Assembly (NCBI GenBank): GCA_963708085.1
Contig: OY970180.1
Coordinates: forward strand, 792,565 to 856,564
Reading direction: 5' to 3'
DNA length: 64,000 nucleotides
Source of the DNA: an uncultured Actinomycetota bacterium
GTDB lineage: Bacteria; Actinomycetota; Thermoleophilia; Solirubrobacterales; Solirubrobacteraceae
Position numbers and translations under genes: made by a program. How positions within the stretch are numbered: the stretch's first letter is position 1; each line of letters starts with the position of its first letter. This document shows positions 4,792 to 59,730 of the stretch, in pieces. Under the pieces are notes generated by a model. That model saw only the letters and a list, made by a program, of their open reading frames with translations. It searched no databases and was not told where the DNA came from.

Positions 4792-7125
4792 ATGGCGAGC
4801 ACCGAGGATCAAGCACACGCATCCAGGCCCGCCGGTGTCAGCGGCGCACCGCCGCAGGTGGCGCCGGTGCCGGTCTCGGCCGCGCGCGCCCAGCTGACCG
4901 ACGTCGAGCGCCGGCTGCTGGACGATCTCTTCGCGATCGTCTCCGAGCACGCGCCCGGCTCCTCGGTGGAGATTGACCGGCTGCGCGTGGAAGACGCGTT
5001 CGTGTTCGCCTGCGAGCACCACGCAGACCAGCGCCGGCGCTCCGGCGAGGATTTCATCGTGCACCCGGTTGGGGTGGCGCGGATCTGTGCGGGCATGCGC
5101 CTTGATACCGAGACGCTGTGCGCGGCGCTGCTGCACGACACCGTCGAGGACACCTCTGCCTCGATCGAGGAGGTGCGCGAGCGCTTCGGCGAGACGATTG
5201 CCAAGATCGTCGACGGCGTTACCAAGCTGACCGGGATCACGTTCACCTCGCGCGATGAGGCGCAGGCGGAGAACTACCGCAAGATGCTAGTCGCGATGGC
5301 CACCGACGAACGGGTGATCCTGATCAAGCTGGCCGATCGCCTGCACAACATGCGCACGATCGACGCGCTGCCCAAGCAGAAGCAGATCGAGAAGGCCAAG
5401 GAGACGCTGGAGATCTACTCCCCGATCGCGCATCGCCTGGGTATCCATGCGATGAAGTGGGAGCTGGAGGACCTCGCCTTCGCCACGCTTCACCCGCGCA
5501 AGTACCAGGAGATAAAGGCGCTCGTGGCCCAGCAGCGCAAGGAGCGCGAGCAATATGTGGCGCAGGCCGGCGAGTACCTCGCGCGCGAGCTGCAGGCGCT
5601 TGGCATCCACGCCGAGATTTCAGGCCGCGCCAAGCACTTCTACTCGATCTACTCGAAGATGACCCACAACGGCAAGGAGTTCAACGAGATCTACGACCTC
5701 ACCGCGATGCGCGTGATCGTGGACTCGGTGAAGGACTGCTACGCCGCGGTGGGGGCGATCCACTCGCTCTGGAAGCCGCTGCCCGGGCGCTTCAAGGACT
5801 TCATCGCGATGCCGAAGTTCAACCTGTACCAGTCGCTGCACACGACGATCATCGGGCCCGAGGGTCGGCCGCTGGAGATTCAGATCCGCACCCACGAGAT
5901 GCACGAACTGGCCGAGTATGGGGTCGCCGCGCACTGGATGTACAAGGAGCGCAAGGGCGCCAAGAGCGTCGGAGGACCAGACGATCAGACCCGCCATCGC
6001 TGGCTGCGCTCGATGCTCGACTGGCAGAAGGACCTCTCCGACCCCAGCGAGTTCATGAAGACGTTCAAGAGCGACCTCTTCGAGGACGAGGTTTACGTCT
6101 TCACGCCCAAGGGCGAGGTCAAGGCGCTGGCCGCCGGCGCCACGCCGCTGGACTTTGCCTACGAGGTCCACACCGAGATCGGCCACCGCTGCGTCGGTGC
6201 GCGCGTCAACGGCAAGATCGTGCCGCTGCACTACGAGATGCGCTCCGGCGACATCGTGGAGATCATCACCTCCAAGCGCGAGCGGGGCCCCTCGCGCGAC
6301 TGGCTCGCGCTGGTCAAAACGACCAGGGCGCGCAACAAGATCAAGCAGTGGTTCAAGGCCGAGACGCGCGTTGACACCGAGCACACAGGGCGCGAGGTGC
6401 TGCAGGAACATCTCAAGAAGGCGGGCCTGCCCGCCCAGAAGATCACCGGCTCGACGCTGCTGGCGGATGTGATCCGCGAGCTCGGCTACCGCAAAGCCGA
6501 CGACTTCTACATCGCTCTGGGCGCCGCGAAGGTCTCACCGAAGACTGTGGTGGACAAGGTGCTGCAGCGTCTCAAGCGCGGCGAGGCCGCCGACGCGGGG
6601 GAGACCGCGGTGTCGGAGATGCTGCGGGTCGGCCGCGGTCGCCGGCGCCCAACCAAGTCCTCTGGCCAGTACGGCATCAAGGTGCAGGGCGTCGAGGACG
6701 TGATGCTGCGCCTGGCCAAGTGCTGCCGGCCGGTGCCCGGCGACCCGATCGTCGGCTACATCTCGCTTGGCCGCGGAATCACGATCCACCGTGAGGATTG
6801 CCCGAACACCGCGTTGCTCAAGCGCAGCCCGGAGCGCTTCACCGATGTCTCCTGGGACGGCGGTCCGCAGCAGAGCTCCTTCGTGGTCGAACTGCAGATT
6901 GACGCGTGGGATCGCCACCATCTGCTGGCCGACATCTCCCGCATCTTCTCGGAGTCGGGCACCAACATTCTGGAAGCCCGTTGCCTGTCAAACCCGCCGA
7001 TGGTCAAGAACCGCTTCGTGATCGAGGTGCCGGACACGCACGCGCTCAAGAGCGCGATCAGCAAGCTGCGAAACACCGAGTCGGTGTTCGATGCGTACCG
7101 GGTGACGCCGGGCGGCGCAGCCTAG
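4792..7125 (+). CDS. relA: Bifunctional (p)ppGpp synthetase/hydrolase RelA/SpoT family
   Basis: HD hydrolase motif (HPVGVA...LLHDTVEDT), synthetase block (HFYSIYSKM...DLTAMRVIV...YQSLHTT), TGS (VYVFTPKGEV) and a C-terminal ACT-like domain. Confidence 0.95.
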   Translation: MASTEDQAHASRPAGVSGAPPQVAPVPVSAARAQLTDVERRLLDDLFAIVSEHAPGSSVEIDRLRVEDAFVFACEHHADQRRRSGEDFIVHPVGVARICAGMRLDTETLCAALLHDTVEDTSASIEEVRERFGETIAKIVDGVTKLTGITFTSRDEAQAENYRKMLVAMATDERVILIKLADRLHNMRTIDALPKQKQIEKAKETLEIYSPIAHRLGIHAMKWELEDLAFATLHPRKYQEIKALVAQQRKEREQYVAQAGEYLARELQALGIHAEISGRAKHFYSIYSKMTHNGKEFNEIYDLTAMRVIVDSVKDCYAAVGAIHSLWKPLPGRFKDFIAMPKFNLYQSLHTTIIGPEGRPLEIQIRTHEMHELAEYGVAAHWMYKERKGAKSVGGPDDQTRHRWLRSMLDWQKDLSDPSEFMKTFKSDLFEDEVYVFTPKGEVKALAAGATPLDFAYEVHTEIGHRCVGARVNGKIVPLHYEMRSGDIVEIITSKRERGPSRDWLALVKTTRARNKIKQWFKAETRVDTEHTGREVLQEHLKKAGLPAQKITGSTLLADVIRELGYRKADDFYIALGAAKVSPKTVVDKVLQRLKRGEAADAGETAVSEMLRVGRGRRRPTKSSGQYGIKVQGVEDVMLRLAKCCRPVPGDPIVGYISLGRGITIHREDCPNTALLKRSPERFTDVSWDGGPQQSSFVVELQIDAWDRHHLLADISRIFSESGTNILEARCLSNPPMVKNRFVIEVPDTHALKSAISKLRNTESVFDAYRVTPGGAA

Positions 7126-8114
7126 GAAATCACGCGGAGCGCGAGCGGCCTGATCGAGTAGCGCGCCTGCCGCACCTTGCCGACGAAGTCGCCGTCGACC
7201 TGCAGCGGCAGGGGGCGGCCGTCGGCGCTTTCGACCGTCATCTCCGTGATCTGCTCAAAGCCGGTGACCTGGCGGTGGTCAGAGACCTGCGCCTTGCTGG
7301 AGAGCGCGCGCCAGGCAACGAAGGGCATAGCTGCCGGCGTTACGCGGTGCAGCACTGCGCCCGCCAGCGTGCCGGAGTCCAGGGCGGGACCGCGCGCGAG
7401 CTCGACCGGGCGGTTCTGGAAATAGGTGAACGGGGAGCCGTTCTGGATCACGGTCGTGACGCCGTCAAGCTGCTGCCCGCCGGCGTGCACACTCATGCGT
7501 GGCGGGTTGAGCAGGTAGCGGCGCGTGAGGCTGGAGATCGCCGCCCAGGTAAAGAACCAGGGGCCGTAGCGGGCCTTCAGGCGGGGGTTGGAGTCCACGC
7601 GCTCCACGACGCTTGCGTCCAGCCCTAGCCCGGAGGCGAACGTGAAGGCGCGGCCGTTGACCATGCCGAGGTCGACGCTGCGCGGCTGCCAGTCGTCGGC
7701 CATCGCCAGCAGATGCTCGGTGGCCGCCACCAGCTCGCCGGGGATGCCGAGCATCTTGCCGAACACGTTCGCGGAGCCGCCGGGCAGGCAGGAGAGCGGT
7801 GTGGAGGAGCCGAGCAGGCCGTTGGCCGCTTCGTTGACGGTGCCGTCTCCGCCAAAGGCTACGACCACGTCGTAGCCCTCGTGGGCGGCCTCCTTGCAGA
7901 GCTCGATCGCGTGCCCGCGCGCCTCGGTGTCCACCGCGTCGACCTCGTAGCGGCCCTGCAGCGCGTAGACGACGAGGTGGCGCAGCCTGTCGGAGACGGT
8001 GGTCGCGTACGGGTTGACGATGATCAGCATCCGCTTCTTGGGGGTGCGCGAGAGGGCGTCGAAGTCCTCTGGCATCTCCTGCGGCGGCTGGAGCTCCTGC
8101 TGAGAAGCGCTCAT
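7122..8114 (-). CDS. Diacylglycerol/lipid kinase family protein (YegS/DagK-like)
   Basis: LIIVNPYA...VVAFGGDGTVNEA...LSCLPGGSANVF motifs of the DAGK catalytic domain. Overlaps the relA stop by 4 nt, convergent. Confidence 0.85.
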   Translation of the reverse strand: MSASQQELQPPQEMPEDFDALSRTPKKRMLIIVNPYATTVSDRLRHLVVYALQGRYEVDAVDTEARGHAIELCKEAAHEGYDVVVAFGGDGTVNEAANGLLGSSTPLSCLPGGSANVFGKMLGIPGELVAATEHLLAMADDWQPRSVDLGMVNGRAFTFASGLGLDASVVERVDSNPRLKARYGPWFFTWAAISSLTRRYLLNPPRMSVHAGGQQLDGVTTVIQNGSPFTYFQNRPVELARGPALDSGTLAGAVLHRVTPAAMPFVAWRALSSKAQVSDHRQVTGFEQITEMTVESADGRPLPLQVDGDFVGKVRQARYSIRPLALRVIS

Positions 8115-8204
8115 CGGCTGTGCCTACACCGCCGAACGCACGCTGTTACCGTCGTCTACCCGAGCTAAAGCTGGGGTTGCGTGCCGCCGATCCATCGTTA
8201 TAAT

Positions 8205-8320
8205 TCTCGTCCGAGATAGCTGGACACATCCAGAGGGGTGGAGGGACTGGCCCTTTGAAGCCCCGGCAACCACCGTTCCGCAGCGGGAAGGTGCCAATTC
8301 CAGATAGATGTGTGGCGGGC
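8205..8320 (+). promoter_or_regulatory. SAM-I (S-box) riboswitch
   Basis: Core ACACATC-CAGAGGGGTGGAGGGACTGGCCCTTTGAAGCCCCGGCAACC...GGTGCCAATTCCAGATA-GATGTGT. The P1 arms are 8224-8230 and 8307-8313. The conserved GAGGGA, GGCAACC and GUGCCAAUUCC blocks are all present. It lies about 60 nt upstream of the ATG at 8378. A downstream GGGCTTC can pair with the GGAGCCC Shine-Dalgarno region. Confidence 0.88.
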
Positions 8321-8377
8321 TTCGCGTCTATTGCCACACGGTAAGCGGGCATGTAGCGCGATTTCAAAGGAGCCCAT

Positions 8378-9685
8378 ATGGCTGTCACCCATCTACAGTG
8401 CAAGGCTTGCAAGGCCGAGTACCCGCTGGAGGCGAAGTACGTCTGCGAGCGCTGCTTCGGCCCGCTGGAGGCCGCCTACGACTACTCGAACCTCGGCGGT
8501 GACGTGGCCGGCCTGCGTCGCCGCATCCAGGGCGGCCCGCAGAACATCTGGCGCTACTCGGACTTCCTGCCGACCGTCGGCGGGCAGCCCGGCCCGTCAG
8601 GGCGCCTGGCTTCGCGCGCAGGCCTGCCCGCCGGCTGCACGCCGCTGATCAGGGCCGACCGGCTGGCCAAGCATCTCGGTCTGCGCGAGGTGTGGGTCAA
8701 GAACGACGCCGCCAACCCGACGCACTCCTTCAAGGACAGGGTGGTCTCCGTGGCCGCCGCACGGGCACGGGAGCTCGGCTTCAAAGTGCTCGCCTGCGCC
8801 TCCACCGGCAACCTCGCCAACTCGGTCGCCGCGCACGCCGCGGCGCTCGGCCTCGAGTCTTACGTGCTGATCCCGGCCGACTTGGAGGAGCAGAAGATCC
8901 TCGCCACAGGCATCTACGGCACCAAAGTCGTCGCGATCGACGGCGACTACGACGAGGTCAACCGCCTCTGCACCGAGATCTCCGCCGAACGGGACTGGGC
9001 GTTCGTCAACATCAACTTGCGTCCCTACTACGCCGAGGGCTCCAAGACCCTTGCCTACGAGATCGCCGAGCAGCTCGGCTTCGAGTTGCCCGATCGCTGC
9101 ATCGTGCCGATCGCCTCGGGCTCGCTCTACACCAAGCTCGCAAGGGGCTTCGCGGAGTGGCGCGAGCTTGGCCTGGTCGAGGGGGAGGCCCCACGCATGA
9201 ATGGCGCGCAGGCCGACGGCTGCGCGCCGGTAGCCAACGCGTATGCGGCCGGCGAGCAGGTCTGCCAGCCGGTGAAGGCCAAAACGATCGCCAAGTCGCT
9301 TGCGATCGGGACCCCGGCCGACGGCCCCTTCGCACTCGACCTCGCGCGTCAGAGCGGCGGCGGCGTCGACTCGGTCAGCGACGATGAGATCAGGCAGGGC
9401 ATCGCGCTGCTCGCGCAGACGACGGGCATCTTCACCGAGACGGCCGGCGGCGTGACTACGGCGGTGCTGGCCAAGCTCGCGCAGCGCGGGGACATCGATC
9501 CGCAGGAGCGCGTCGTGCTCGTGATCACCGGCGAGGGCCTGAAGACGCTGGACGCAGTGAAGGGCACGTTCGAGACGACCCAGATCGCGCCGAGCTACGA
9601 GCAGTTCGAGGCTGCCTTCCCGGAGGCTCGGGACGATCGCGCAGCCGCCGACGCGGCGACCGCCGGGTTCGCGGCGCTGCGCTGA
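8378..9685 (+). CDS. thrC: Threonine synthase family PLP enzyme with N-terminal Cys4 zinc ribbon
   Basis: CKAC...CERC at the N terminus. PLP-lysine block NPTHSFKDR, ASTGNLANS, and GxGG-like SGSLY. Good SD (AAAGGAG) 7 nt upstream. Confidence 0.85.
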   Translation: MAVTHLQCKACKAEYPLEAKYVCERCFGPLEAAYDYSNLGGDVAGLRRRIQGGPQNIWRYSDFLPTVGGQPGPSGRLASRAGLPAGCTPLIRADRLAKHLGLREVWVKNDAANPTHSFKDRVVSVAAARARELGFKVLACASTGNLANSVAAHAAALGLESYVLIPADLEEQKILATGIYGTKVVAIDGDYDEVNRLCTEISAERDWAFVNINLRPYYAEGSKTLAYEIAEQLGFELPDRCIVPIASGSLYTKLARGFAEWRELGLVEGEAPRMNGAQADGCAPVANAYAAGEQVCQPVKAKTIAKSLAIGTPADGPFALDLARQSGGGVDSVSDDEIRQGIALLAQTTGIFTETAGGVTTAVLAKLAQRGDIDPQERVVLVITGEGLKTLDAVKGTFETTQIAPSYEQFEAAFPEARDDRAAADAATAGFAALR

Positions 9686-9699
9686 TCGCCAGCTGAACG

Positions 9700-10524
9700 C
9701 TAAGTCTGCGCGTCCATCGCCAGCGCGCTAGCGCCGGTCGTGCTGTGCGCTGCTTGCGCAGGCTCAGCGAGCACATGCACGGCCGCCGGAGCTGGCGCTG
9801 AGCGCACGACGCGAGAGCGCATCCACAGCAGCAGGCAGATGGCGATCAGTGCCATCTCGGCGAGCACGATCGCGCCGGCGATCCCCTGGTCGGCCAGCGG
9901 CGAGGTCGAGGAGGCCGTGTCGCTGCGTAGGAAGTAGGGGTAGTAGACGTCTGGCGACCAGATGCCGACGCAAGCGAGCGCGATGCCTGCGGCCCGGCCG
10001 ATCACGACGTAGGCGATGCTGTTGCGCGCGCTCATCTGCGGCCGCGGGCCGGCAATGCCGCGCAGCAGCGCCGACCACATGTTCAGGCCGGTCGCGACCA
10101 GGAGCACCTCCTGCAGCAGCGTCAGCGAGTCGTGGCGCATGGTTGTCTCGAAGATGCTCGGCCACTGCCACACCAGCAGGTTGGCGAGCCAAAGCGTCAG
10201 CGCGACCGGCGCGCGGGTCAGCGGCGCTAGGAGCCGCAGCGGGGTCCGCGCTAGCGGCGCGAGGATCGACCGGGTCAGGCCAATCGCGATCAGCAGGCAG
10301 GTGAGGTCTCCGATCAGGAGGTGCTGGACGGTGCGCCAGTAGAGCAGTTCTCTGCCGGGCGAGGCGAGCACCACCATGCTCCCAAGCAGCGACACCAGGC
10401 CGACAGCGGTGCAAAGCAGCCGCGATCTTGGGACGGGCTGGCCGATCCTGGCGAGATGCAGAGCGCGGCTGCCGTAGGCGAGCGCCATCAGCGCCACCAA
10501 GGCGATCTCTGCGGCGATCAGCAT
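9700..10524 (-). CDS. Cytochrome c oxidase assembly factor CtaG-like membrane protein (Caa3_CtaG family)
   Basis: A polytopic protein of about 7 TM helices with a VQHLLIGDL-type motif. Layout is typical of Bacillus-type CtaG. Assignment is by pattern only. Confidence 0.6.
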   Translation of the reverse strand: MLIAAEIALVALMALAYGSRALHLARIGQPVPRSRLLCTAVGLVSLLGSMVVLASPGRELLYWRTVQHLLIGDLTCLLIAIGLTRSILAPLARTPLRLLAPLTRAPVALTLWLANLLVWQWPSIFETTMRHDSLTLLQEVLLVATGLNMWSALLRGIAGPRPQMSARNSIAYVVIGRAAGIALACVGIWSPDVYYPYFLRSDTASSTSPLADQGIAGAIVLAEMALIAICLLLWMRSRVVRSAPAPAAVHVLAEPAQAAHSTTGASALAMDAQT

Positions 10525-10708
10525 CTGCTCAGCCTACGCGCTGCAAGGCGAAAGTGGCGCGGCAGAGCGCTGTCGCGACCGCTCGGACGCCGACACGAAA
10601 GGGGATTTCTTCGAGCAAATGGCGCGCTTTTCGGGCTGCTCGCTGGTGGGTTCGATATCGTCTGGGCTAGCCGAGTCCTGCTATCAACCCCCTGGAGGTT
10701 CTCTCATC

Positions 10709-12442
10709 TTGAAGGTGATCGGCGCCGGATTCGGTCGCACGGGCACGATGTCGCTCAAGGTCGCGCTGGACGAGCTCGGTGTCGGGCCTTGTCTGCATGC
10801 GATGGAGTCGCTGCGTGGCGAGCGGACCGCTGCGGGCGCCATGCACTGGGACAGGGTCGCAAACGGCGAGCCGATTGACTGGCAGCAGAGCTTCACCGGA
10901 TGGGGCTCCACGGTCGATTGGCTGGGCGCGCGCTTTTACCCGGAGATGCTGCAGGAGTGGCCGCAGGCGAAGGTGATCCTCAGCGTCAGGGACCCTGAGG
11001 AGTGGTATGAGAGCTGCGACGTGAGTCTGCACGCCACCAGCGGGCTGCAACCGCCGCGCGTGAGCGCCGCCGCCGCGCCGATGCTGAAGGCCGTCGACAC
11101 CGCGATCTGGCAGGGAATCTTCGACGGGCGGTTCGGCGAGCGCGACTATGCGCTGGAGGTCTTCGAGCGCCACCGGCTCCAGGTCGCCGGCACCGTGCCG
11201 CCGGAGCGGCTTCTGATCTATGACATCCGCGAAGGCTGGGAGCCGCTGTGCGAGTTCCTCGGCGTACCCGTGCCGCAGACGCCGTTTCCGCACCTCAACG
11301 GCAGGGAGGCGTTCTGGACGCGCTTCGGCATGACGCCGACGGCGGCGCCGGCGCGGTCGCTGCGAGGGCAAGGTCTGCCAACGGGATTGCCGGCAACGTC
11401 GCAGCCGCCGCTGCCCTCGCGCATCCTGGGCCTGGCTACCGCAGACCCAGAGGTCACGCTCGACCAGCAGCAGATGCTCGATCTGCTCGGCCTCTCCGAC
11501 GATCCGTTTGCGCAGCGCATCTTCGGTCGCTGCGGCGTCAAGCAACGGCGCATGCATCTGAGCGCCGAGATGCTGGAAAAGCCGCTGCAGGGCCGCACGG
11601 CAGAGGTCGAGGAGTTTCTGCTCGCAAGCGCCGTGGAGGCGGTGGAGAAGCTCGACGTGGACCTTGGCCAGATCGGCACGGTGATCTCCTCGAGCCTTTA
11701 TTCGCTGGGATGCCCGCCGCTCGCGCACCAACTGATCGAGCACTTCGATCTCGACCCCGGGATCGACAAGTACCACCTCGTCGGCGTGGGCTGCTCCAGC
11801 GCGGTACCGCTGATCCGGCTGGCGCAGCGCCAGCTGCCCGAGCATCCCGACAAGCTTTGCCTGGTCGTCGGCGCGGAGAGCATGTCGGGGCTGCTGATGG
11901 GCGCCACCGAGGGCGACCCGCGCAGCAAGACCGTGGGCTCATCGATCTTCGGCGACGGCTGCGGCGCGATGCTGATCGGTGCCTGCGGACCGGAGGATCC
12001 GAGCGTCGCTCCGTCGATTCTCGCCTCCAAGGTGCACCAGGTTCCGGACAGCCTTGGAGCCGTGTGCATGAAGTTGGATGTGCACGACAGCTATCTGCAC
12101 CTCGTCCGCGAGCTGCCCGACATCGCCGCCGAACACCTAGGCGGGCTGGTCGAGAACTTCCTCGCCTCCAGTGGCATGACCGCACACATGGTCGACCACT
12201 GGATGCTGCACCCGGGCGGCAGGCGCATCATCGATTGCGCACGGGAAGCGCTGAACCTGCCCTACGAGGCGGTTGAGGTCAGCTATCAGTTGCTGGCCGA
12301 GCACGGCAACGTCGGCACGCCGTCGATCTTCTACGTGATCGAGCGCACGATCGCCCAGCGTCAGCCGCGCCGTGGCGAGCACGGCCTGGCGATCACGATC
12401 GGGCCCGGCGTCAGCGTCGGATTGATGCTGCTGCGCTGGTGA
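10709..12442 (+). CDS. Fusion protein: N-terminal PAPS-type sulfotransferase domain + C-terminal type III polyketide synthase
   Basis: N-terminal part: GAGFGRTGTMSL (5'-PSB-like P-loop), AKVILSVRDPEEWYES, and LIYDIREGWEPLCEFLGVPVP (Sulfotransfer_4-like). After a Pro-rich linker comes a chalcone-synthase-like part with an intact Cys-His-Asn triad (VGVGCSSAV; LHPGGRRII; EHGNVGTPS) and GPGVSVG near the C terminus. Start set at TTG 10709, 11 nt after GGAGG. The ATG at 10619 is an alternative. Confidence 0.8.
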   Translation: MKVIGAGFGRTGTMSLKVALDELGVGPCLHAMESLRGERTAAGAMHWDRVANGEPIDWQQSFTGWGSTVDWLGARFYPEMLQEWPQAKVILSVRDPEEWYESCDVSLHATSGLQPPRVSAAAAPMLKAVDTAIWQGIFDGRFGERDYALEVFERHRLQVAGTVPPERLLIYDIREGWEPLCEFLGVPVPQTPFPHLNGREAFWTRFGMTPTAAPARSLRGQGLPTGLPATSQPPLPSRILGLATADPEVTLDQQQMLDLLGLSDDPFAQRIFGRCGVKQRRMHLSAEMLEKPLQGRTAEVEEFLLASAVEAVEKLDVDLGQIGTVISSSLYSLGCPPLAHQLIEHFDLDPGIDKYHLVGVGCSSAVPLIRLAQRQLPEHPDKLCLVVGAESMSGLLMGATEGDPRSKTVGSSIFGDGCGAMLIGACGPEDPSVAPSILASKVHQVPDSLGAVCMKLDVHDSYLHLVRELPDIAAEHLGGLVENFLASSGMTAHMVDHWMLHPGGRRIIDCAREALNLPYEAVEVSYQLLAEHGNVGTPSIFYVIERTIAQRQPRRGEHGLAITIGPGVSVGLMLLRW

Positions 12443-13316
12443 AGCCGGGGACCGGCGGCCCCTGCGGCTGCTGCGGAGATTCCGATCCGCCTTGCACGCC
12501 TTCGCCTTCAAGCTGTCCCCATGTCACCGTGAACGCGTTGCCCGCGGCCGACAGCGGTGAGGCGATCCCACTGGCGGGCGTGACTGACGCCGCGTAGCGT
12601 CGTCCCGGCCCCTGGGAGTAGTCGCGCAGTTCCAGGCGCGTCACCTTCAGCGAGCGCGCGTCGATCGCGCTGGTCTGCGACTGCGAGCTGCTGACGGAGG
12701 CATTGGAGAACGAGACGGTGCCGAAGTTCGTCAGCGGCAGCGGCGTGCAGTGGGTGCTCGTAAAGCAGAGCGAGGGCGCCTCCACGATCCACTCCGCCGA
12801 GGAGAGGTCCGGAGCCGAGGTCGTGCGGACAGCCGTCTTTGCAGTATGCGCGGTGAGGTCACGTACCGTGAGGATCGTCTGATCGGCCTTCTGCGCGACC
12901 GACGCAGCGATCGTGTCGCCGGGATGCACCGCCAGCTTCATCGTCACTGGGGCGGCGGGCACGAGCTCGAACCAGGCCGAGTAGACCGCGCGCCCGGAGG
13001 TCGTGCAGTCCACTGCGGTGCCCGTCTGCTCAAGCGCTTTGGAGCCCTGGTTGAAGCCGCCGAGGCCCACCCAGGTCACCGAGTAGGTTTCCTGGCCCTG
13101 GACGCACTGTCCGGCCGGTTGTGCCCAGGTGCCCGCGACGCGGTGCAAGAGAGCCGACTTGGAGGCGCCGGTCACGGCGTAGCCGGCCCAGTTGGCGCTG
13201 ACCGCTGTGCTCTCGGCGGCCACCGCCTGGGTCGGGGCGATAGCCGCGGTTATGCCGGGGATGCCGGCGGCCAGAAACCCCAGGAGGGCGAGGCGCTTGG
13301 CGGCTACGGGGGTCAT
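12411..13316 (-). CDS. Secreted G1-family (eqolisin/scytalidoglutamic) peptidase
   Basis: Signal peptide (LALLGFLAAGIPGITAAIAPTQAVAA). SANWAGYAV, TWVGLGG and AEWIVEAP (catalytic Glu context) motifs. The 3' end overlaps the convergent PKS gene by 32 nt. Confidence 0.7.
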   Translation of the reverse strand: MTPVAAKRLALLGFLAAGIPGITAAIAPTQAVAAESTAVSANWAGYAVTGASKSALLHRVAGTWAQPAGQCVQGQETYSVTWVGLGGFNQGSKALEQTGTAVDCTTSGRAVYSAWFELVPAAPVTMKLAVHPGDTIAASVAQKADQTILTVRDLTAHTAKTAVRTTSAPDLSSAEWIVEAPSLCFTSTHCTPLPLTNFGTVSFSNASVSSSQSQTSAIDARSLKVTRLELRDYSQGPGRRYAASVTPASGIASPLSAAGNAFTVTWGQLEGEGVQGGSESPQQPQGPPVPGFTSAAASIRR

Positions 13317-13662
13317 GAGAACAGTTGTCGGCAGGATTGATCGGTGGCAAAAGCGTTGCGTTTGAGCCTTAAGCGATGGTTAGAGCCCGGTGAGACGAGG
13401 ATAGGAATCGTGGGCAGGGCGCATTGCGGGCTTCGCCGCTGTCCTTTCGCGAGATCTCCGCAATTCCTGCTGCATGGAGCATGGAATGTGCCTGTCCGAC
13501 CGGGAGCTCTTGCGGGATCCTGCGGCCCCGTATTCGGCTCAGTTCCTGGTCCCAGTTTGGGTCGATCTGGCCGGTTACCTTCTAGAGCCTCTTGCCGGCC
13601 TCGCCGAGTACTCAGCCGGCTTGCCCCATGAGGCCGAGCCGACGGTCATCAAGCGATGCCAG

Positions 13663-13735
13663 CGCGCCCGGCGTGATTCGAACACGCGACCTTCCGCTCC
13701 GGAGGCGGACGCTCTATCCACTGAGCTACGGGCGC
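13663..13735 (-). tRNA. tRNA-Arg (anticodon CCG)
   Basis: Minus strand reads GCGCCCG-TA-GCTC-AGTGGATA-GAGC-G-TCCGC-CTCCGGA-GCGGA-AGGTC-GCGTG-TTCGAAT-CACGC-CGGGCGC-G. This is a complete 73-nt cloverleaf. CCA is not encoded. Confidence 0.93.
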
Positions 13736-13819
13736 AACGGCGCCGCGCGGGCGCCTGGAAGGGAGCTTAGCGGCGCACCGGCCGGCTGTGGGTGCCGTGC
13801 CGTCGCTACCGTTGCGGCC

Positions 13820-55398: not shown

Positions 55399-56028
55399 GG
55401 CAGGTCCTTCGATCAGGTGGTGTTCGAGGCACATGCCAGTCAGGCTAGTTGCCGGGTGCAATGAGCGTTTCTCGATTCCTGCTCGGCTAGATCACTGCGT
55501 TCGTGGGTGCGCCGCGGCTCTCAGAACATTCGCATTTGGATAATCCCTGCCTAAGTACTTAGATTGGTCTGGGCAGCTAGAAGGCGCGTTCAAGCCGTCG
55601 CTGCGGCGTCCAGCAGCGAACAGATGGAGTCTGGTGATTCCTCGTTGAGCGGTAAACAGCCTCGCGGAGACCGAGGGTCGTCGCTCGAGTTCTGAAGCAC
55701 ACCTCCGGTACTGTCTCGCGCCACGATTCAATCTGCTAGCTTGCCGTCCGGTCTTCAGCGCCAGCGTCTTGCTACCACAGCGTGGCCCGGAGCCGATGGC
55801 ATCAGTTGCGAGACGATCCACATTGGGTCGTCGCGGAGAGCGCAATCACGAGGAGAGGGGAAGATCGCGTGAGCACCACGATCATAAGCCCAGACCATCG
55901 TTGGAGCCGGTGCCTCCCGCCCATGCACGCGGCGAGCCTGCCAATGCCGTGCCCCATATGGCCCAAACGGACTCGTGGTCGGGATCCATCGCTCGCAGCT
56001 GAGTTGCCCCATTTGTCGAACGGTCACG

Positions 56029-56358
56029 ATGGCTGGTAACGACCTCTCGGCGGCTTCAATAGCGACGCACACCGATCTTAGGATGCTTCGCTGCTATGTC
56101 GTCGTCGCCGAAGAGCTGCATTTTGCGCGCGCGGCACAGCGCCTCATTACCACGCAGGCCACAGTAAGCAGAACAGTGCGCACTCTTGAGGCCCAGTTGG
56201 GCGTTCAGCTATTGGAGCGAAGCTCTCGGCGAGTCGAGCTAACGGACGCTGGCCGAGTGGTGCTGGTGGGTGGTCGTGAACTCTTGGCGCACTATCAAGC
56301 GCTCGTGGCCGAGGTGTCGGCCCTCAAGCAACGCGGCAGCCTCCCTACAAAAACCTAA
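56029..56358 (+). pseudogene. Truncated LysR-family regulator (HTH + linker only, about 109 aa)
   Basis: LRMLRCYVVVAEELHFARAAQRLITTQATVSRTVRTLEAQLGVQLLERSSRRVELTDAG is the LysR wHTH. The ORF stops right after the linker helix, with no effector-binding domain. The stop is followed 10 nt later by a perfect 14-bp hairpin and a drop in GC. Confidence 0.7.
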
Positions 56359-56367
56359 CTATTGGTT

Positions 56368-56399
56368 ATGCGTATTCCGTATTGATACGGAATACGCAT
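56368..56399. repeat. Perfect 14-bp inverted repeat (ATGCGTATTCCGTA-ttga-TACGGAATACGCAT)
   Basis: Read directly. It is AT-rich relative to its surroundings, has no T tract, and sits exactly at the end of the LysR fragment. Confidence 0.85.
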
Positions 56400-56606
56400 T
56401 GGACATACCATGCCAGTAGAGCTTATGGTTGCTTCGATGCCGGCCAAATCGCGTAAGCGTAACTTGTTGCCTCCATGATATCCCACCCGTTCAGGAAGGG
56501 GTCATCCTCACCGACTGGCTTCACGGCAGTGTGGTGGACCCAATACATAAGAGAGGCGCCAGCGATGAACGACCGGTTGTGCAGTTGCCAACAACGAGGA
56601 GTGAAG

Positions 56607-57521
56607 ATGGAACAGTCAGGTAGGTCGTACTTGCGCAACGCGGTTGCGCTTGGTTTTGTTAGCGCCATGATCGCTATGCTGGCAATAGGCGTCACAGCGA
56701 CACCAGCAGCGGCATACGAATACGAACACATCTATTGTGAAAACATCATGGAACCCGGTGGAACGTGTCCGCCGAGCGGCAGCAGCGAATATGCTCACCT
56801 TCAAGTGAATGAAGGTGATGCTGGTGGCCAGAGTCACGAGACCTGTATTGACGAGTACTTGACGGGCCCCAAAAAATATACGTCACAAAAATGCATGTAC
56901 TACGCGGGTGAAGAGGCCGTGGATACTCCCGGAGGAGAATACGGATATCCCCGCGCATGGAATGGCGGCAGCGCAACGCACGCGGTTGACGCCGTGGAGC
57001 GTGGCTACCATACTGCTGCTGTAGAGAGTGCGATAACGTCGCCACTAACTCCGAGTGGGATAAGCGCAAGCGGGCTGCCGACGGCCGTCGTGCAGGGTCT
57101 CAGCAATTACCCCGGCATCGACTTGGCTACGGCGCAAGCAGCCGGAAGCACCTATCCCGCATGGGTCATTACCGGTTCGACGGAGACCTGCCTCATGCAT
57201 GAAGGGATGCGGCCGGGCGATGTGCCTGGCGGCGTGTGCGGTCCGACGTCGGTTGCGCAAGAACGTGGTTTGGCGATAACGACCGAAAATGCCGCCGGCG
57301 CGGCCGTGATTTTTGGGCTCGCGCCAGCTGGCAATACGTCGGTTAGCGTGATCGAATCCGATGGAGCAGCGAGGAACGTACCGGTCACAAACGGAGTCTA
57401 TGAGGTCACAGGAGGCAACCCAAATGCGGTAAGACTGAGCGCCGCATCAGGCGAAGCTACGACTCGTCACCTAGCTGCTTTGTCGTCGGTACCGCCTGCA
57501 TCGGCGCCCGCCGGGTCGTAG
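56607..57521 (+). CDS. Secreted/anchored hypothetical protein, Cys-containing N-domain plus C-terminal beta module shared with the neighbouring anti-sigma factor
   Basis: SD GAGGAG before the ATG. N-terminal hydrophobic signal/anchor (AVALGFVSAMIAMLAIGVTATPAAA). Atypical AT-richer codon usage (for example AAAAAATATACGTCACAAAAATGC). I recognise no known family. Confidence 0.65.
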   Translation: MEQSGRSYLRNAVALGFVSAMIAMLAIGVTATPAAAYEYEHIYCENIMEPGGTCPPSGSSEYAHLQVNEGDAGGQSHETCIDEYLTGPKKYTSQKCMYYAGEEAVDTPGGEYGYPRAWNGGSATHAVDAVERGYHTAAVESAITSPLTPSGISASGLPTAVVQGLSNYPGIDLATAQAAGSTYPAWVITGSTETCLMHEGMRPGDVPGGVCGPTSVAQERGLAITTENAAGAAVIFGLAPAGNTSVSVIESDGAARNVPVTNGVYEVTGGNPNAVRLSAASGEATTRHLAALSSVPPASAPAGS

Positions 57522-57565
57522 CCACTCCGTAGGCCGTCTGGTTAGCGTCGTTATCCCGCGGGTGA

Positions 57566-57596
57566 GTGGGTGCCGCCGTACAGCGGTGGCACCCAC
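57566..57596. terminator. 13-bp hairpin between convergent genes (likely bidirectional terminator)
   Basis: GTGGGTGCCGCCG-tacag-CGGTGGCACCCAC, with one G-U pair. It lies between the stops at 57521 (+) and 57683 (-). Confidence 0.5.
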
Positions 57597-57682
57597 CGCT
57601 TCTCTATCGCCACAGTGCCTTGATGCTGGTTTCGAGCGCAATAAGCGTCGGTGCGTCGTCTGACGCTGTGATTCGTCTGTCC

Positions 57683-58432
57683 CTAGTGCTGACCGCCCGG
57701 TTCTCTCGTAGGCATGCTCTGCTGCACGGTTGCGCCACTTGCTGTAGTGATTTCTGCGGTCTGCGCTTGTCGGTTTCCCGGCCAGTCAGCCGCGAACCAC
57801 CCGTTTGAGACCGTCGCCTGAACACGACTGCCGTCTTCGAGTACGAGCGTAACGGCAGTTACGTTTGTGCCGACGCGGCCAGCGTTGAAGTCGAATTCGG
57901 CGATCGGGGACGTTTTCGTGAGCACGGAGCCCGTATCCGTTCTTCGGATCGCGTCAGAGGCCATAGGAGCGGTGGGCGATATGCCGCCGTCACGGAAAGG
58001 CGCAAACGGTGGTTCCCCTGTAGGGCTATTAAACGAGGGGCCCGTGACGCACAGTCCGACCCCGGAAGCATCCGTGTATACAAGCAGCGTGTACGGCCCT
58101 CGCGTGTCCACTACGGCAGGTGCCCGCGATGTCAGCGCTGAGTTACGCTGACATTCGGATTCTGCGGTCCGTACCTGGCCGCTTGCAGCTGGTGTCGGCT
58201 TCGCGCTCCATCCTGCGAACGCGTTCGGTGTATCGCCGCCCGCAAAGATGACTGCCGCCGCGGCAGCTGCTGCGACAGCGCCGCCCGCACACATCGCCCG
58301 CAAGATCAAGCGCTGTGGTACCCGGGTGCCCTGCGCATGATTTCGTGAAAGGCGGGCAGCCGCCTCGGAGGGCACCTCTGCCGCGTGCCGCGCGAACATC
58401 TCTCGCAGGTCAGTCTCGATATTATCTGTCAT
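57683..58432 (-). CDS. Membrane-anchored anti-sigma factor (putative)
   Basis: The start ATG overlaps the ECF sigma stop (ATGA). A short cytoplasmic N terminus, a single Ala-rich TM helix (AMCAGGAVAAAAAAAVIFAG), and an extracytoplasmic domain of about 180 aa. The position and topology are typical of ECF partners. Confidence 0.7.
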   Translation of the reverse strand: MTDNIETDLREMFARHAAEVPSEAAARLSRNHAQGTRVPQRLILRAMCAGGAVAAAAAAAVIFAGGDTPNAFAGWSAKPTPAASGQVRTAESECQRNSALTSRAPAVVDTRGPYTLLVYTDASGVGLCVTGPSFNSPTGEPPFAPFRDGGISPTAPMASDAIRRTDTGSVLTKTSPIAEFDFNAGRVGTNVTAVTLVLEDGSRVQATVSNGWFAADWPGNRQAQTAEITTASGATVQQSMPTREPGGQH

Positions 58433-59028
58433 CGGCTTCTGCTCCTTAGCTGATTCCCGATACTTATAGATTGGGGAGCGCGCGGATCCTCCTCCGCTGA
58501 TGACTGCAGCGCTTCGCGGAGACGCACGAGACTGCGAGAGGTCGTACTCTTGACGGTCCCGACAGAGCAACCAAGCATCTCTGCGACCTGTGCCTCGGAG
58601 AAGTCTCCGAAGTAGCGCAACACCAAGATCACTCTCTGGCGAGTCGGCAGCGCACGCACAGCGTCACGCAAATCCCCGTCAGCGGTAGGCAGCGTCGTCA
58701 CGTCATCCGTTCGATCGTCGCCACGAAACGCGAGCTTGGCCTCAGAGGGCCCATCCAGTCTCAGAAGCTCTTGCCAGCGCCGAGCGCGCCGCTGTCCGCC
58801 GTCGAGCGCCAGGTTCACGAGCACTCGCCGGGCATATGCACCAGGATGATGCATCACGCGTATATGTCGCCAACGCTCCGCGACGCGCAAAAAGCATTCC
58901 TGCGTCAAGTCTTCGGCCTCTGGCAGATCAGAGGTGATCAGGTAGGCAGTCCTAAGCAAGTCGTCGCCGTAGCTTGCAACGAATTGCTCGAACTCGATCC
59001 GAGTCCGGTCTTCGTGCCGTGACTCCAC
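58429..59028 (-). CDS. ECF-type RNA polymerase sigma-70 family factor
   Basis: Region 2 (LLRTAYLITSDLPEAEDLTQECFLRV...YARRVLVN) and region 4 HTH (RQRVILVLRYFGDFSEAQVAEMLGCSVGTVKSTTSRSLVRLRE). Confidence 0.9.
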   Translation of the reverse strand: MESRHEDRTRIEFEQFVASYGDDLLRTAYLITSDLPEAEDLTQECFLRVAERWRHIRVMHHPGAYARRVLVNLALDGGQRRARRWQELLRLDGPSEAKLAFRGDDRTDDVTTLPTADGDLRDAVRALPTRQRVILVLRYFGDFSEAQVAEMLGCSVGTVKSTTSRSLVRLREALQSSAEEDPRAPQSISIGNQLRSRSR

Positions 59029-59172
59029 TTAGCTCCCCGGCCATAGGTCTGTAGTACCCATCGTCGACTTAAACCCCTTTCGGACCCCAAAAGGTTGAGC
59101 TGCTCAAGACAGTTTTGCTCCTGCTCCATAGTCGCCGACCTCTCCATCGCCGAATCGAGAGGCTCTATGCGC

Positions 59173-59628
59173 TCAGATCTCTGCAGTGTCGCCGGCCAGG
59201 GCGTCTTGCAAGCCTTCGCGTGCTCCTGGCTGTGCAAGCGCACACTGGTCGGCTCCCTCGTGCAGCAGTGCGGCGAAGCGCCGCTCATCCTTTGCGACGG
59301 AGCGCAGCTTGGCCAGGCGTTCCTTCAGCTCTTGGGTGCTTGCAAACCTCACGCGCTGGGGAGAGCTGCCGGGCACGCTCGCCAGCAGGCCCTTCGCGAT
59401 CCAACTCCGTACGGTCGGTCGACTGACCTCAAGCTCCTCGGCCACCTCGGGCACAGTCAGCGCTGGCGCGTCGGCGTGAACAGTCTGCCTTGCCTGCCTG
59501 AGCGCGCTCTCCGCGACGGCGACGCGGCCGTGGTCGAGCGCGTCGCTCGCACGCGTGATCGCATCGTCGAGCGTGATGAAGCAGGCGATCAATTGACGGT
59601 GCTCACTCTTGGTCATCATGCCCACCAT
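59173..59628 (-). CDS. Excisionase/MerR-type helix-turn-helix (HTH_17-like) DNA-binding protein
   Basis: LTVPEVAEELEVSRPTVRSWIAKGLL is the excisionase-family HTH, flanked by helical N- and C-terminal regions. No integrase or toxin is adjacent. Confidence 0.65.
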   Translation of the reverse strand: MVGMMTKSEHRQLIACFITLDDAITRASDALDHGRVAVAESALRQARQTVHADAPALTVPEVAEELEVSRPTVRSWIAKGLLASVPGSSPQRVRFASTQELKERLAKLRSVAKDERRFAALLHEGADQCALAQPGAREGLQDALAGDTAEI

Positions 59629-59730
59629 AGCAGGTGCTTTCTGAAAAGCACTCAGAATAGAAAGATATGCAAAGGGTAGGGCTCAGATGCGGGTAGCCAT
59701 CGTGATACGGCACGGCTACTCTTCGAAGGC

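Follow-up and report, generated by a model that had tools for sequence, protein, structure and literature searches.

In caprazamycin biosynthesis, the PAPS-dependent sulfotransferase Cpz8 sulfates the triketide pyrones made by the type III polyketide synthase (PKS) Cpz6, which means that the sulfate acceptor is the PKS product itself, a 4-hydroxy-α-pyrone, and that PAPS is the donor (PMC6731281, PMC4924298). Another member of the Sulfotransfer_4 family, Hoch_6098, sulfates the phenol resveratrol (PMC6731281). In Mycobacterium tuberculosis, within the operon rv1371-rv1372(pks18)-rv1373, a type III PKS for long-chain α-pyrones adjoins a sulfotransferase, and the authors of that work put forward the hypothesis of a lipid core made by the PKS and then modified by the sulfotransferase (PMC13141999). 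SgdX2 is called an 'activating sulfotransferase' in the title of Mori et al. 2024, as cited in PMC11677658.

The gene that we describe here carries both kinds of enzyme in one frame. It lies on the forward strand at positions 10709-12442 of a 64-kb stretch of DNA (the whole stretch is called the window below) from a soil actinobacterium of the Solirubrobacteraceae, and it is a single ORF of 577 aa inside a maximal ORF of 607 aa (10619..12442, +). A preliminary description had read it as a single-ORF fusion of a sulfotransferase and a type III PKS, and this reading stands, the same architecture being present in 91 other proteins. Every motif which that description quoted is present where it had been placed, and the two neighbours were found as described. 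The features are the following:

9700-10524, - strand: Caa3_CtaG neighbour (Pfam)
10694..10698, + strand: Shine-Dalgarno-like GGAGG, 10 nt 5' of the TTG at 10709 (read from the sequence)
10709..12442, + strand: fusion CDS, TTG start, TGA stop at 12440-12442
10709..11317, + strand: Sulfotransfer_4 domain (ST domain; Cpz8-type, PAPS-dependent family), residues 1-203 (Pfam PF17784)
10727..10753, + strand: 5'-phosphosulfate-binding P-loop GFGRTGTMS, residues 7-15 (motif conserved in 92 fusions)
10796..10798, + strand: His30, candidate catalytic base, invariant in 92 fusions
10988..11014, + strand: 3'-phosphate-binding motif R94-x7-S102 (RDPEEWYES), R94 and S102 invariant in 92 fusions
11234-11251, + strand: GWEPLC motif (read from the sequence)
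11318..11419, + strand: interdomain linker, residues 204-237, rich in Ala, Arg, Pro, Gly and Ser (pLDDT, conservation, dN/dS)
11420..12439, + strand: type III PKS domain, residues 238-577 (Pfam, phmmer, Foldseek)
11792..11794, + strand: predicted catalytic Cys362 (GVGCSS), equivalent to Cys164 of CHS
12209..12211, + strand: predicted catalytic His501 (HPGG), equivalent to His303 of CHS
12308..12310, + strand: predicted catalytic Asn534 (HGNVG), equivalent to Asn336 of CHS
12411-13316, - strand: Peptidase_A4 (G1) neighbour (Pfam)

The TTG start is identical to that of an independent gene call (P0001, 577 aa, 98% identity, 100% coverage), and the orthologues begin with M/V/L-K-V-I-G, in agreement with it. 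GC3 is 0.88 in the ST domain, 0.82 in the linker and 0.87 in the PKS domain, values that are typical for the real genes of the window. A scan for promoters and terminators, which is uninformative for this phylum, gave no signal. Regarding the surroundings, the gene lies among ThrC-like, CtaG-like, G1 peptidase and RNase Z-like genes and a pyr operon. No second Sulfotransfer_4 or second PKS was found in the 64-kb window, nor PAPS-synthesis genes, nor an arylsulfate sulfotransferase (ASST), nor a biosynthetic cluster around the gene that would supply the final sulfate acceptor; the earlier remark that no ASST or other tailoring gene is adjacent holds across the whole 64 kb.

A search for the same architecture, suggested together with the first reading of the gene, gave 91 other full-length proteins from independent assemblies (JGI, ENA, NCBI and Logan, some of the contigs being 1-3.5 Mb long), with 46-98% identity and both domains in frame. 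Together with the protein of the window they form the set of 92 fusions used throughout, and the relatives are mostly Solirubrobacteraceae MAGs. The P-loop, H30 and R94-x7-S102 are invariant or at least 90% conserved in this set, down to 46% identity, and so are C362, H501, N534, F414 and the GPG loop of the PKS domain; both domains look active. The fusion is old and monophyletic. Three further proteins with matches in two stretches (P0147, P0219 and P0212) were considered as independent fusions of this kind and turned out to be tandem ST4-ST4 proteins (ST4 standing for Sulfotransfer_4). In the literature searched we found no description of a fusion between a sulfotransferase and a type III PKS, and the architecture is apparently undescribed; the one cyanobacterial paper in which both terms occur is on another subject.

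The linker has 34 aa here and 16-77 aa across the 92 proteins, and it is in frame in all of them. Its conservation in the set is about 0.3, its pLDDT is below 50 at residues 207-230 and its dN/dS against close orthologues is 0.3-0.9, that is, nearly neutral evolution. In the AF2 model of the whole protein both domains are confidently predicted and the tether between them is disordered. For the domains, dN/dS against close orthologues is 0.03-0.20 (ST) and 0.08-0.21 (PKS), and both are under purifying selection. A linker of this type is also the place where a sequencing or assembly error could have merged two adjacent genes, given that GC-rich, Pro/Ala-rich stretches are error-prone, which is a prior consideration only. 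Nevertheless, the linker has the GC3 of a coding sequence of this window, and one frame runs through linkers of all those lengths. Because 91 other proteins from independent assemblies keep the fusion, we regard such an artefact as practically excluded.

The N-terminal domain, proposed to be a sulfotransferase, matches PF17784 over the entire model (positions 1-215 of 215; residues 32-232 in the numbering of the 607-aa ORF) with E=1.2e-54 and 185.9 bits (cut-off 22.8), which is far past chance and confirms the proposal. Its best match among solved structures is PDB 9kf1 (E=4e-52; the identity is 45% over 207 aa with blastp and 47% over 190 columns of the alignment). We identified 9kf1 as Cpz8 against the published synthetic cpz8 gene, by means of a three-frame exact 6-mer test on the OCR'd gene sequence. 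The ST domain is closely akin to Cpz8, which of the characterised enzymes is the nearest to it. The second-best structural relative is SgdX2 (8y9p; E=5e-48, with 44% of 200 aligned columns identical), and the Schistosoma sulfotransferase 5tiz gave E=1e-19. A literature search on the PDB codes 9KF1, 9KF2 and 8Y9P found nothing relevant.

Within the P-loop, R10, T11, G12 and T13 are at least 90% conserved among the 92 fusions and S15 is invariant. Cpz8, SgdX2 and the stand-alone partner ST4s described below have the GFGRTGTMS loop too, and His30, the putative catalytic base, is conserved in all of these as well. The R-x7-S spacing is that of the canonical 3'-phosphate-binding motif of cytosolic SULTs, and the P-loop, the His, the R-x7-S and the GW(E/P)xLC motifs are common to the ST domain and SgdX2. 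We infer that the ST domain uses PAPS. In a neighbour-joining (NJ) tree the fused ST clade stands apart from Cpz8, SgdX2 and the stand-alone partners, which group together, and therefore the ST sequence gives no specific preference for SgdX2 over Cpz8. The mean pLDDT of 10-residue blocks of the domain ranges from 58 to 96; the core is high and the low values (58-75) fall in loops at about residues 31-50 and 101-130.

The C-terminal domain has Pfam matches to Chal_sti_synt_C (58.2 bits), FAE1_CUT1_RppA (56.2), ACP_syn_III_C (46.3) and Chal_sti_synt_N (31.3, cut-off 27), which jointly cover residues 285-607 in the 607-aa numbering. With phmmer it matches Pks11 (E=1.7e-30), and with Foldseek the target-normalised TM-score is 0.88 for Pks11 and 0.87 for Pks18; all of the top 50 Foldseek matches are type III PKSs. 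The fold, thiolase-like (αβαβα), resembles the type III PKSs more than FabH and is closest to these two long-chain alkylpyrone synthases. The catalytic Cys, His and Asn, noted as intact in the preliminary description, are indeed invariant in the 92 proteins and aligned with the triads of Pks11 and STS. Two other identities were rejected by NCBIfam: the FabH models score 72 against a cut-off of 249, and the top match, the 3,5-dihydroxyphenylacetyl-CoA synthase DpgA, scores 123.4 bits against an equivalog cut-off of 425. The structure of germicidin synthase (if deposited; presumably PDB 3V7I) was absent among the 60 best PDB matches, which hints at a subfamily other than the Cpz6-type (Gcs/VioA-like) one that forms pyrones. 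The identity to any characterised PKS is about 21-26% and the cavity is unusual (T132L, S133Y, T194M, T197L, G256M, F265L and S338G in CHS numbering), and therefore neither the ring type nor the chain length is predictable from the cavity residues.

Among more distant relatives the fusion has a companion. Six fusion loci at 65% identity or less were examined, and in each of them a second, stand-alone Sulfotransfer_4 gene lies divergently upstream of the fusion; the partner has intact PAPS motifs and is not a Cpz4-type ASST. The PKS clade is thus linked with Sulfotransfer_4 genes in the genome both by fusion and by a divergent neighbour. The clade of the window is without this partner and has lost it. 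Therefore, the view of the gene as stand-alone is right for the clade of the window and wrong for these six loci. The rest of the neighbourhood varies among the related loci and consists mostly of housekeeping genes. Gene tables were available for 14 related loci, and in their annotated flanks, which reach about 8-10 kb to either side apart from two short contigs, we found no ASST, PAPS genes, tailoring genes or acceptor pathway. A kinase-like gene beside the partner ST4 at L006 and L007, considered as an APS kinase, is a shikimate kinase and is therefore uninformative about PAPS.

P0112 (locus L013), which had been considered as the ancestral unfused state, turned out to be a decayed fusion where only the P-loop of the ST is left, with a stand-alone ST4 adjoining. 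P0119 is a second possible remnant and has no adjacent ST4, and because of it we dropped the idea that every relative retains at least one of its two sulfotransferases. The ST domain was lost repeatedly, as P0112, possibly P0119, and the clades of stand-alone PKSs in the tree show. At L011, L012 and L018 there is no ST4 nearby. For the PKS, therefore, sulfation is not obligatory.

We think it rather probable that the fusion is a bifunctional enzyme which makes and O-sulfates its own polyketide. Type III PKSs are all homodimers, as the C-terminal domain presumably is. An acyl-CoA starter would be loaded on Cys362, extended with malonyl-type units and cyclised to a hydroxylated ring, either a 4-hydroxy-2-pyrone or an alkylresorcinol, and the Cpz8-type domain, on its flexible tether, would move the sulfate of PAPS onto the enolic or phenolic hydroxyl of this product, so that a sulfated polyketide would come from a single protein. 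That the PKS product is the acceptor of the ST is suggested by the logic of fusion and neighbourhood and by the precedent of Cpz6 and Cpz8; in this scheme the starter, the type of ring and the function of the product in the organism are putative. In most relatives the partner ST4 probably puts one more sulfate on the product or works on a different hydroxyl, and in the lineage of the window, which lost the partner, the fused ST domain alone would serve. Since neither the 64-kb window nor the annotated flanks of the 14 loci showed an ASST or acceptor pathway, the sulfated polyketide would most likely not shuttle sulfate but be the end product itself, a sulfated, amphiphilic lipid of the pyrone or phenolic type.

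The shuttle would be a relay as in caprazamycin, where the sulfated pyrone is an activated aryl-sulfate donor for another acceptor. It could be completed by an ASST like Cpz4 or by the partner ST4 running through PAP, and a second sulfotransferase gene is actually a conserved neighbour in most of the fusion family. Nevertheless, we consider the relay unlikely: this neighbour has the PAPS motifs of its family and is no Cpz4-type enzyme, the clade of the window is without even the partner, and the other neighbours are variable and mostly housekeeping genes. An ASST may lie elsewhere in the genome. The preliminary description had seen in the fusion a Rosetta-stone version of the caprazamycin logic; this idea holds for the ST half, because the closest solved structure is Cpz8 itself, and the relay part was not borne out, as neither the window nor the annotated flanks of the related loci showed an ASST.

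A sulfate that serves as a leaving group, in the style of SgdX2 or the CurM ST, and is then eliminated or displaced to give a sulfate-free final product, seems very unlikely to us. SgdX2 is indeed a near structural relative, and a short-lived intermediate would be well served by a sulfotransferase joined covalently to the synthase. However, the NJ tree does not lean towards SgdX2, the products of type III PKSs are enolic or phenolic, so that eliminating the sulfate has no obvious role, and no thioesterase, dehydratase or nucleophile-delivering enzyme is conserved near the related loci. It is highly improbable, in turn, that the domains work independently, with the ST sulfating a different metabolite of the cell and the fusion doing no more than co-regulate them or aid folding or localisation. 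The long, disordered linker would allow it, and so would the lineages that deleted the ST while the PKS persists. Against it, the fusion is kept under purifying selection over deep divergence, the PKS clade has become linked to ST4 genes in two ways, and Cpz6 and Cpz8 are a precedent for a direct substrate-product relation between the two families.

Beyond the bifunctional enzyme, we can speculate that the divergent pair of ST4 and ST4-type III PKS in the Solirubrobacterales is an uncharacterised pathway, for a new class of sulfated lipids or for a sulfate-carrier system, although we rate this as rather unlikely. The cassette could make cell-envelope lipids of the phenolic or pyrone type with one or two sulfates, which, if true, would be a new sulfated lipid class in abundant soil actinobacteria. 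It could otherwise be a self-contained 'sulfate carrier', where the fused enzyme would charge a polyketide with the sulfate of PAPS, and the resulting aryl or enol sulfate would be the donor for the second Sulfotransfer_4 or for an unlinked enzyme; if true, the two-step sulfation of caprazamycin would be generalised beyond antibiotic clusters and without an ASST.

To our knowledge, type III PKSs are almost always stand-alone, and it is rare for one to be fused in nature to a tailoring enzyme and for the fusion to be conserved. The fusion is independent evidence, of the Rosetta-stone type, that Cpz8-family sulfotransferases and type III PKSs are functionally paired, and it extends this pairing well outside the one antibiotic pathway where it had been shown. 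It points to a sulfated metabolite in the Solirubrobacteraceae, a widespread and barely cultured soil lineage, and would give access to sulfated pyrones or resorcinols with a single compact gene, which makes it interesting for biocatalytic sulfation. Furthermore, the states within the family (partner plus fusion, fusion alone, decayed fusion plus partner) are a natural experiment on why enzymes fuse and on whether two sulfotransferases are redundant.

Regarding the known systems, a sulfotransferase is embedded in a polyketide assembly line in the CurM/OLS sulfotransferase-thioesterase didomains, where the CurM ST, as part of a type I PKS module, modifies an ACP-bound β-hydroxyl ahead of the decarboxylative elimination of curacin biosynthesis. 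In the 'Steely' proteins of Dictyostelium a type I FAS/PKS is fused to a type III PKS, so the partner is not a tailoring enzyme. As far as we know, neither of these joins a Sulfotransfer_4 with a type III PKS. SgdX2, from sungeidine biosynthesis, is a Sulfotransfer_4 like the ST domain, but it is a stand-alone enzyme of an enediyne-derived pathway, where the sulfate is said to activate, and has no association with a type III PKS.

On the PKS side, the nearest solved relatives are Pks11 and Pks18, and the best sequence and fold matches are Pks11 (4jao), Pks18 (1ted) and a type III PKS of M. marinum (7cb3/7d41). They share with the C-terminal domain the compact bacterial type III fold of about 350 aa and the Cys-His-Asn triad, but at about 24-26% identity, with other cavity residues and without an N-terminal enzyme domain. 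Pks18, with the TM-score given above among the best fold matches, also provides the parallel of rv1371-rv1373; there, however, the genes are separate, the desaturase-like rv1371 has no counterpart at the fusion locus, and we take Rv1373 to be of a different, eukaryote-like sulfotransferase family.

The closest system is that of Cpz8 and Cpz6 (with Cpz4) in Streptomyces sp. MK730-62F2, and with it LipE of the related liponucleoside cluster. As in the Cpz6/Cpz8 pair, a type III PKS is paired here with a Cpz8-type sulfotransferase, but both activities are on one polypeptide. The caprazamycin cluster has the Cpz4-type ASST and a liponucleoside acceptor pathway, whereas the fusion gene has no such ASST, liponucleoside or other acceptor pathway nearby and lies in housekeeping surroundings; in place of the ASST, most members of the fusion family have a second Sulfotransfer_4.

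The open reading frame that contains the fusion spans 10619-12442 (+), and the following elements lie at its start and beside it:

8223-8314 (+), SAM riboswitch (RF00162, 78.5 bits), directly 5' of the ThrC-like gene at 8378-9685
9700-10524 (-), Caa3_CtaG-like membrane protein (Pfam)
10694-10698 (+), GGAGG preceding the start codon (read from the sequence)
10709 (+), TTG start codon of the fusion, giving a protein of 577 aa
12411-13316 (-), Peptidase_A4 (G1) protein (Pfam)
13662-13735 (-), tRNA-Arg(CCG)

An independent gene call for a homologous protein (P0001, 98% identity) has the same start and length. Regarding the domains, the N-terminus matches the full-length Sulfotransfer_4 family (ST4, PF17784; E=1.2e-54, 185.9 bits against a cut-off of 22.8) and the C-terminal ~340 residues match Chal_sti_synt_N/C, FAE1_CUT1_RppA and ACP_syn_III(_C) in Pfam. 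These matches confirm the preliminary description of a sulfotransferase (ST) and a type III polyketide synthase (PKS) joined in one reading frame, and each motif quoted there was found at its position. Each domain clearly belongs to a known family.

An artefact that merged two separate genes can be excluded. The linker (residues 204-237) is Ala/Arg/Pro/Gly/Ser-rich and, in an alignment of 92 full-length fusions, measures 16-77 aa, with minimal conservation and always in frame. The GC3 values of the ST domain, linker and PKS domain (0.88, 0.82 and 0.87) match those of other real genes of the window. In an AlphaFold2 model built from the 92-member alignment both domains were confident (mean pLDDT 83.5), and residues 207-230 between them fell below a pLDDT of 50. 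Furthermore, dN/dS against four orthologues with 76-98% protein identity was 0.03-0.20 for the ST domain, 0.08-0.21 for the PKS domain and 0.3-0.74 for the linker; against the more distant locus L010 the values were 0.36, 0.43 and 0.88 respectively.

The catalytic residues had been expected to be conserved, and this is the case throughout the 92 fusions. In the ST domain the 5'-phosphosulfate loop G-F-G-R10-T11-G12-T13-M-S15, His30, the 3'-phosphate motif R94-x7-S102, His155, W177 and P194-H195 are all invariant or at least 90% conserved. The R-x7-S spacing is the one found in the canonical 3'-PB motif of sulfotransferases, and we infer His30 as the candidate catalytic base. In the PKS domain, Cys362, His501 and Asn534 occupy the positions of the catalytic triad when aligned to Pks11 and stilbene synthase; these three are invariant, and so are Phe414 (at CHS Phe215) and the loop G565-P566-G567. 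The top 50 Foldseek matches of this domain were type III PKSs only, the top target-normalised TM-scores being 0.88 for M. tuberculosis Pks11, 0.87 for Pks18 and 0.85-0.87 for an M. marinum enzyme. FabH and DpgA identities were rejected, their NCBIfam scores being far under the cut-offs. The cavity, in CHS numbering transferred through the stilbene synthase alignment, carries T132L, S133Y, T194M, T197L, G256M, F265L and S338G, and the identity of the domain to any characterised PKS is at most ~26%.

The best solved-structure match of the ST domain was 9kf1 (E=4e-52), followed by SgdX2 (8y9p, E=5e-48). The deposited title of 9kf1 is merely 'Sulfotransferase family protein'. We identified it as Cpz8, the caprazamycin sulfotransferase, by exact 6-mers from three frames of the synthetic cpz8 gene printed in the supplementary material by Jendresen and Nielsen (2019; PMC6731281), a gene text that contains OCR indels, because coverage of 9kf1 residues 4-201 was 90% for cpz8, 57% for lipE and 15% for Hoch_6098. 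The ST domain is 45% identical to 9kf1 over 207 aa (E=2e-59), and the conserved ST motifs are common to the fusion, Cpz8 and SgdX2. Cpz8 is reported to carry out the PAPS-dependent sulfation of a triketide pyrone made by the type III PKS Cpz6, after which Cpz4 hands the sulfate onward (PMC6731281; PMC4924298). Therefore, the caprazamycin analogy drawn earlier is right for the ST half at the level of the enzyme family. Hoch_6098, of the same family, sulfates resveratrol (PMC6731281), and SgdX2 is called an 'activating sulfotransferase' in a title cited in the reference list of PMC11677658.

Regarding distribution, a word-indexed protein search found ~95 clusters (90% identity) in which PF17784 and the type III PKS domains occur together, with 98-100% query coverage. 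They are 45-98% identical to the query and come from JGI, ENA, NCBI and Logan assemblies; several lie on contigs of 0.3-2 Mb, and a scan of a genome collection added a 3.5-Mb contig. The genomes nearest to that of the window are MAGs under the labels Solirubrobacteraceae, Solirubrobacterales or Actinomycetota. Among 1.84 billion representatives (50% identity), searched exhaustively, no more than about two or three full-length fusions turned up (P0121, P0081), the remaining strong matches being single-domain ST4 or PKS proteins. On these searches the architecture is limited to one lineage, within which it is frequent. P0147, P0219 and P0212 (446-578 aa) were rejected as PKS fusions, since they are tandem ST4-ST4 didomains; the ST4 family is thus also fused to itself. 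A predicted protein of 4818 aa (P0122) has 12 tandem type III PKS repeats, with 12 stretches each of Chal_sti_synt_N and Chal_sti_synt_C; it may be a genuine poly-PKS, or an array of eukaryotic gene copies that was read as one gene.

All of the window is core-genome: SecDF, RecJ, RelA, DAGK-like, ThrC-like, CtaG-like, the fusion, G1 peptidase, tRNA-Arg, RNase Z-like, pyrR-pyrB-pyrC-carAB, Gmk, CoaBC, IF-2, RibF, PNPase, DapBA, RNase J, FtsK, CinA, one P450, RecA and MiaB. The neighbours are the CtaG-like membrane protein and the G1 peptidase named before. The fusion is divergent from the former, with a 184-bp spacer, and its 3'-end shares 32 bp (12411-12442) with the convergent peptidase gene; a scan found no terminator-like site between the two, and the same convergent arrangement occurs in loci L014 and L015. 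The reported lack of an adjacent arylsulfate sulfotransferase (ASST), methyltransferase or tailoring gene was borne out across the 64-kb window, which also has no PAPS-pathway gene, acyl-CoA ligase, second ST4 or second PKS.

Other features of the window were also recorded. The ThrC-like PLP enzyme has a Cys-rich, zinc-ribbon-like N-terminal segment, and its riboswitch suggests a role in methionine/homocysteine rather than threonine synthesis. The spacer between the peptidase and RNase Z-like genes, which holds the tRNA-Arg, is short here (13316-13800). In the 98%-identical L014 it is occupied by ~1.9 kb of small genes, a HicA toxin among them, and in L015 by a PIN-domain gene; it is a strain-variable islet beside a tRNA. 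The stretch at ~55500-59700, of lower GC (0.59-0.62 vs 0.68 elsewhere), may be of horizontal origin; it encodes an ECF sigma factor, a LysR HTH fragment and two ORFs that match no Pfam family. The lone cytochrome P450 (51492-52715, +) lies among the housekeeping genes CinA and RecA, ~39 kb from the fusion, and no link between the two was seen.

The loci of relatives, whose flanks were visible over no more than 8-10 kb either side of the gene (less on two short contigs), fall into these arrangements:

L005, L006, L008, L010, L016, L017 (all at most 65% identity): fusion with an immediately upstream, divergent ST4 of 231-264 aa
window, L001-L004, L014, L015 (at least 69% identity): fusion alone, flanked by CtaG and Peptidase_A4
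L013: decayed fusion (P0112 PKS, 8001-9185) with a separate, stand-alone ST4 (7006-7722)
L011, L012, L018: PKS alone, nearby ST4 absent (in L018 the PKS is P0119, 3743-4822)

L007 and L009 are second contigs with the same proteins as L006 and L008 respectively. The gene had been called stand-alone, which holds for the clade of the window but not for the examined fusion loci at or below 65% identity, where the partner ST4 is present in six of six. The partner-bearing L010 shows synteny to the window (ThrC-like, CtaG, ..., RNase Z-like, pyrR, pyrB), so that the clade of the window has lost the partner. Among themselves the partners are 64-79% identical, a well-conserved clade of their own in which all PAPS motifs are kept, and they are 38-44% identical to the fused ST domains. 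The latter are monophyletic in a neighbour-joining tree of a small sample, which points to a single ancient fusion and not to a recent duplication of the neighbour. L013 shares its CofD/CofC/CofE surroundings with the fusion locus L005. Its P0112 begins with VKAIGAGSGRTGAMSLKVALEELG, a remnant of the ST P-loop, followed directly by linker and PKS, and is a fusion that underwent an internal ST-domain deletion and retained its partner. In a similarly small neighbour-joining tree, further stand-alone PKSs fall inside the group of fusions; one of these, P0119, may keep an ST remnant resembling that of P0112, with no ST4 in the visible flanks. No recurrent neighbour other than the partner was found across the relatives' loci, which variously hold F420 genes, methionine synthase, an MFS transporter, FAS-II genes, an O-methyltransferase fragment and a radical-SAM protein.

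The best-supported interpretation is that the fusion is a bifunctional enzyme that would make and O-sulfate its own polyketide: the PKS domain would yield a hydroxylated pyrone or resorcinol, which the tethered Cpz8-type domain would sulfate with PAPS. This is favoured because the motifs are intact and both domains are under purifying selection, because Cpz6/Cpz8 are a precedent for exactly these two families, because the genomic linkage is double (the fusion itself and the conserved ST4 neighbour) and because another plausible acceptor pathway is absent nearby. As a speculation, a product with a pair of hydroxyls, e.g. an alkylresorcinol disulfate, would be consistent with the two sulfotransferases that most members have.

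A sulfate relay of the Cpz type, in which an ASST passes the sulfate on, is weakened: neither an ASST nor an acceptor pathway was present in the 64-kb window or in the relatives' visible flanks, and we therefore place the fusion outside such a system, within the sequence available. An activating sulfation like that of SgdX2 or CurM is a rival reading, for which evident chemistry is wanting on a phenolic or enolic product and a conserved partner enzyme is absent. Independent activities of the two domains are a further rival to the bifunctional enzyme.

In the literature searched we found no prior description of an ST-type III PKS fusion. As far as this search shows, the covalent fusion, the conserved two-gene cassette with a second ST4, the location outside a recognisable biosynthetic cluster and the restriction to Solirubrobacterales-like soil actinobacteria all appear to be new. 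The functional pairing of the same two families is already known from caprazamycin, and M. tuberculosis pks18 and rv1373 are an analogous, unsolved adjacency (PMC13141999). The first two steps of the fusion probably work like those of the Cpz system.
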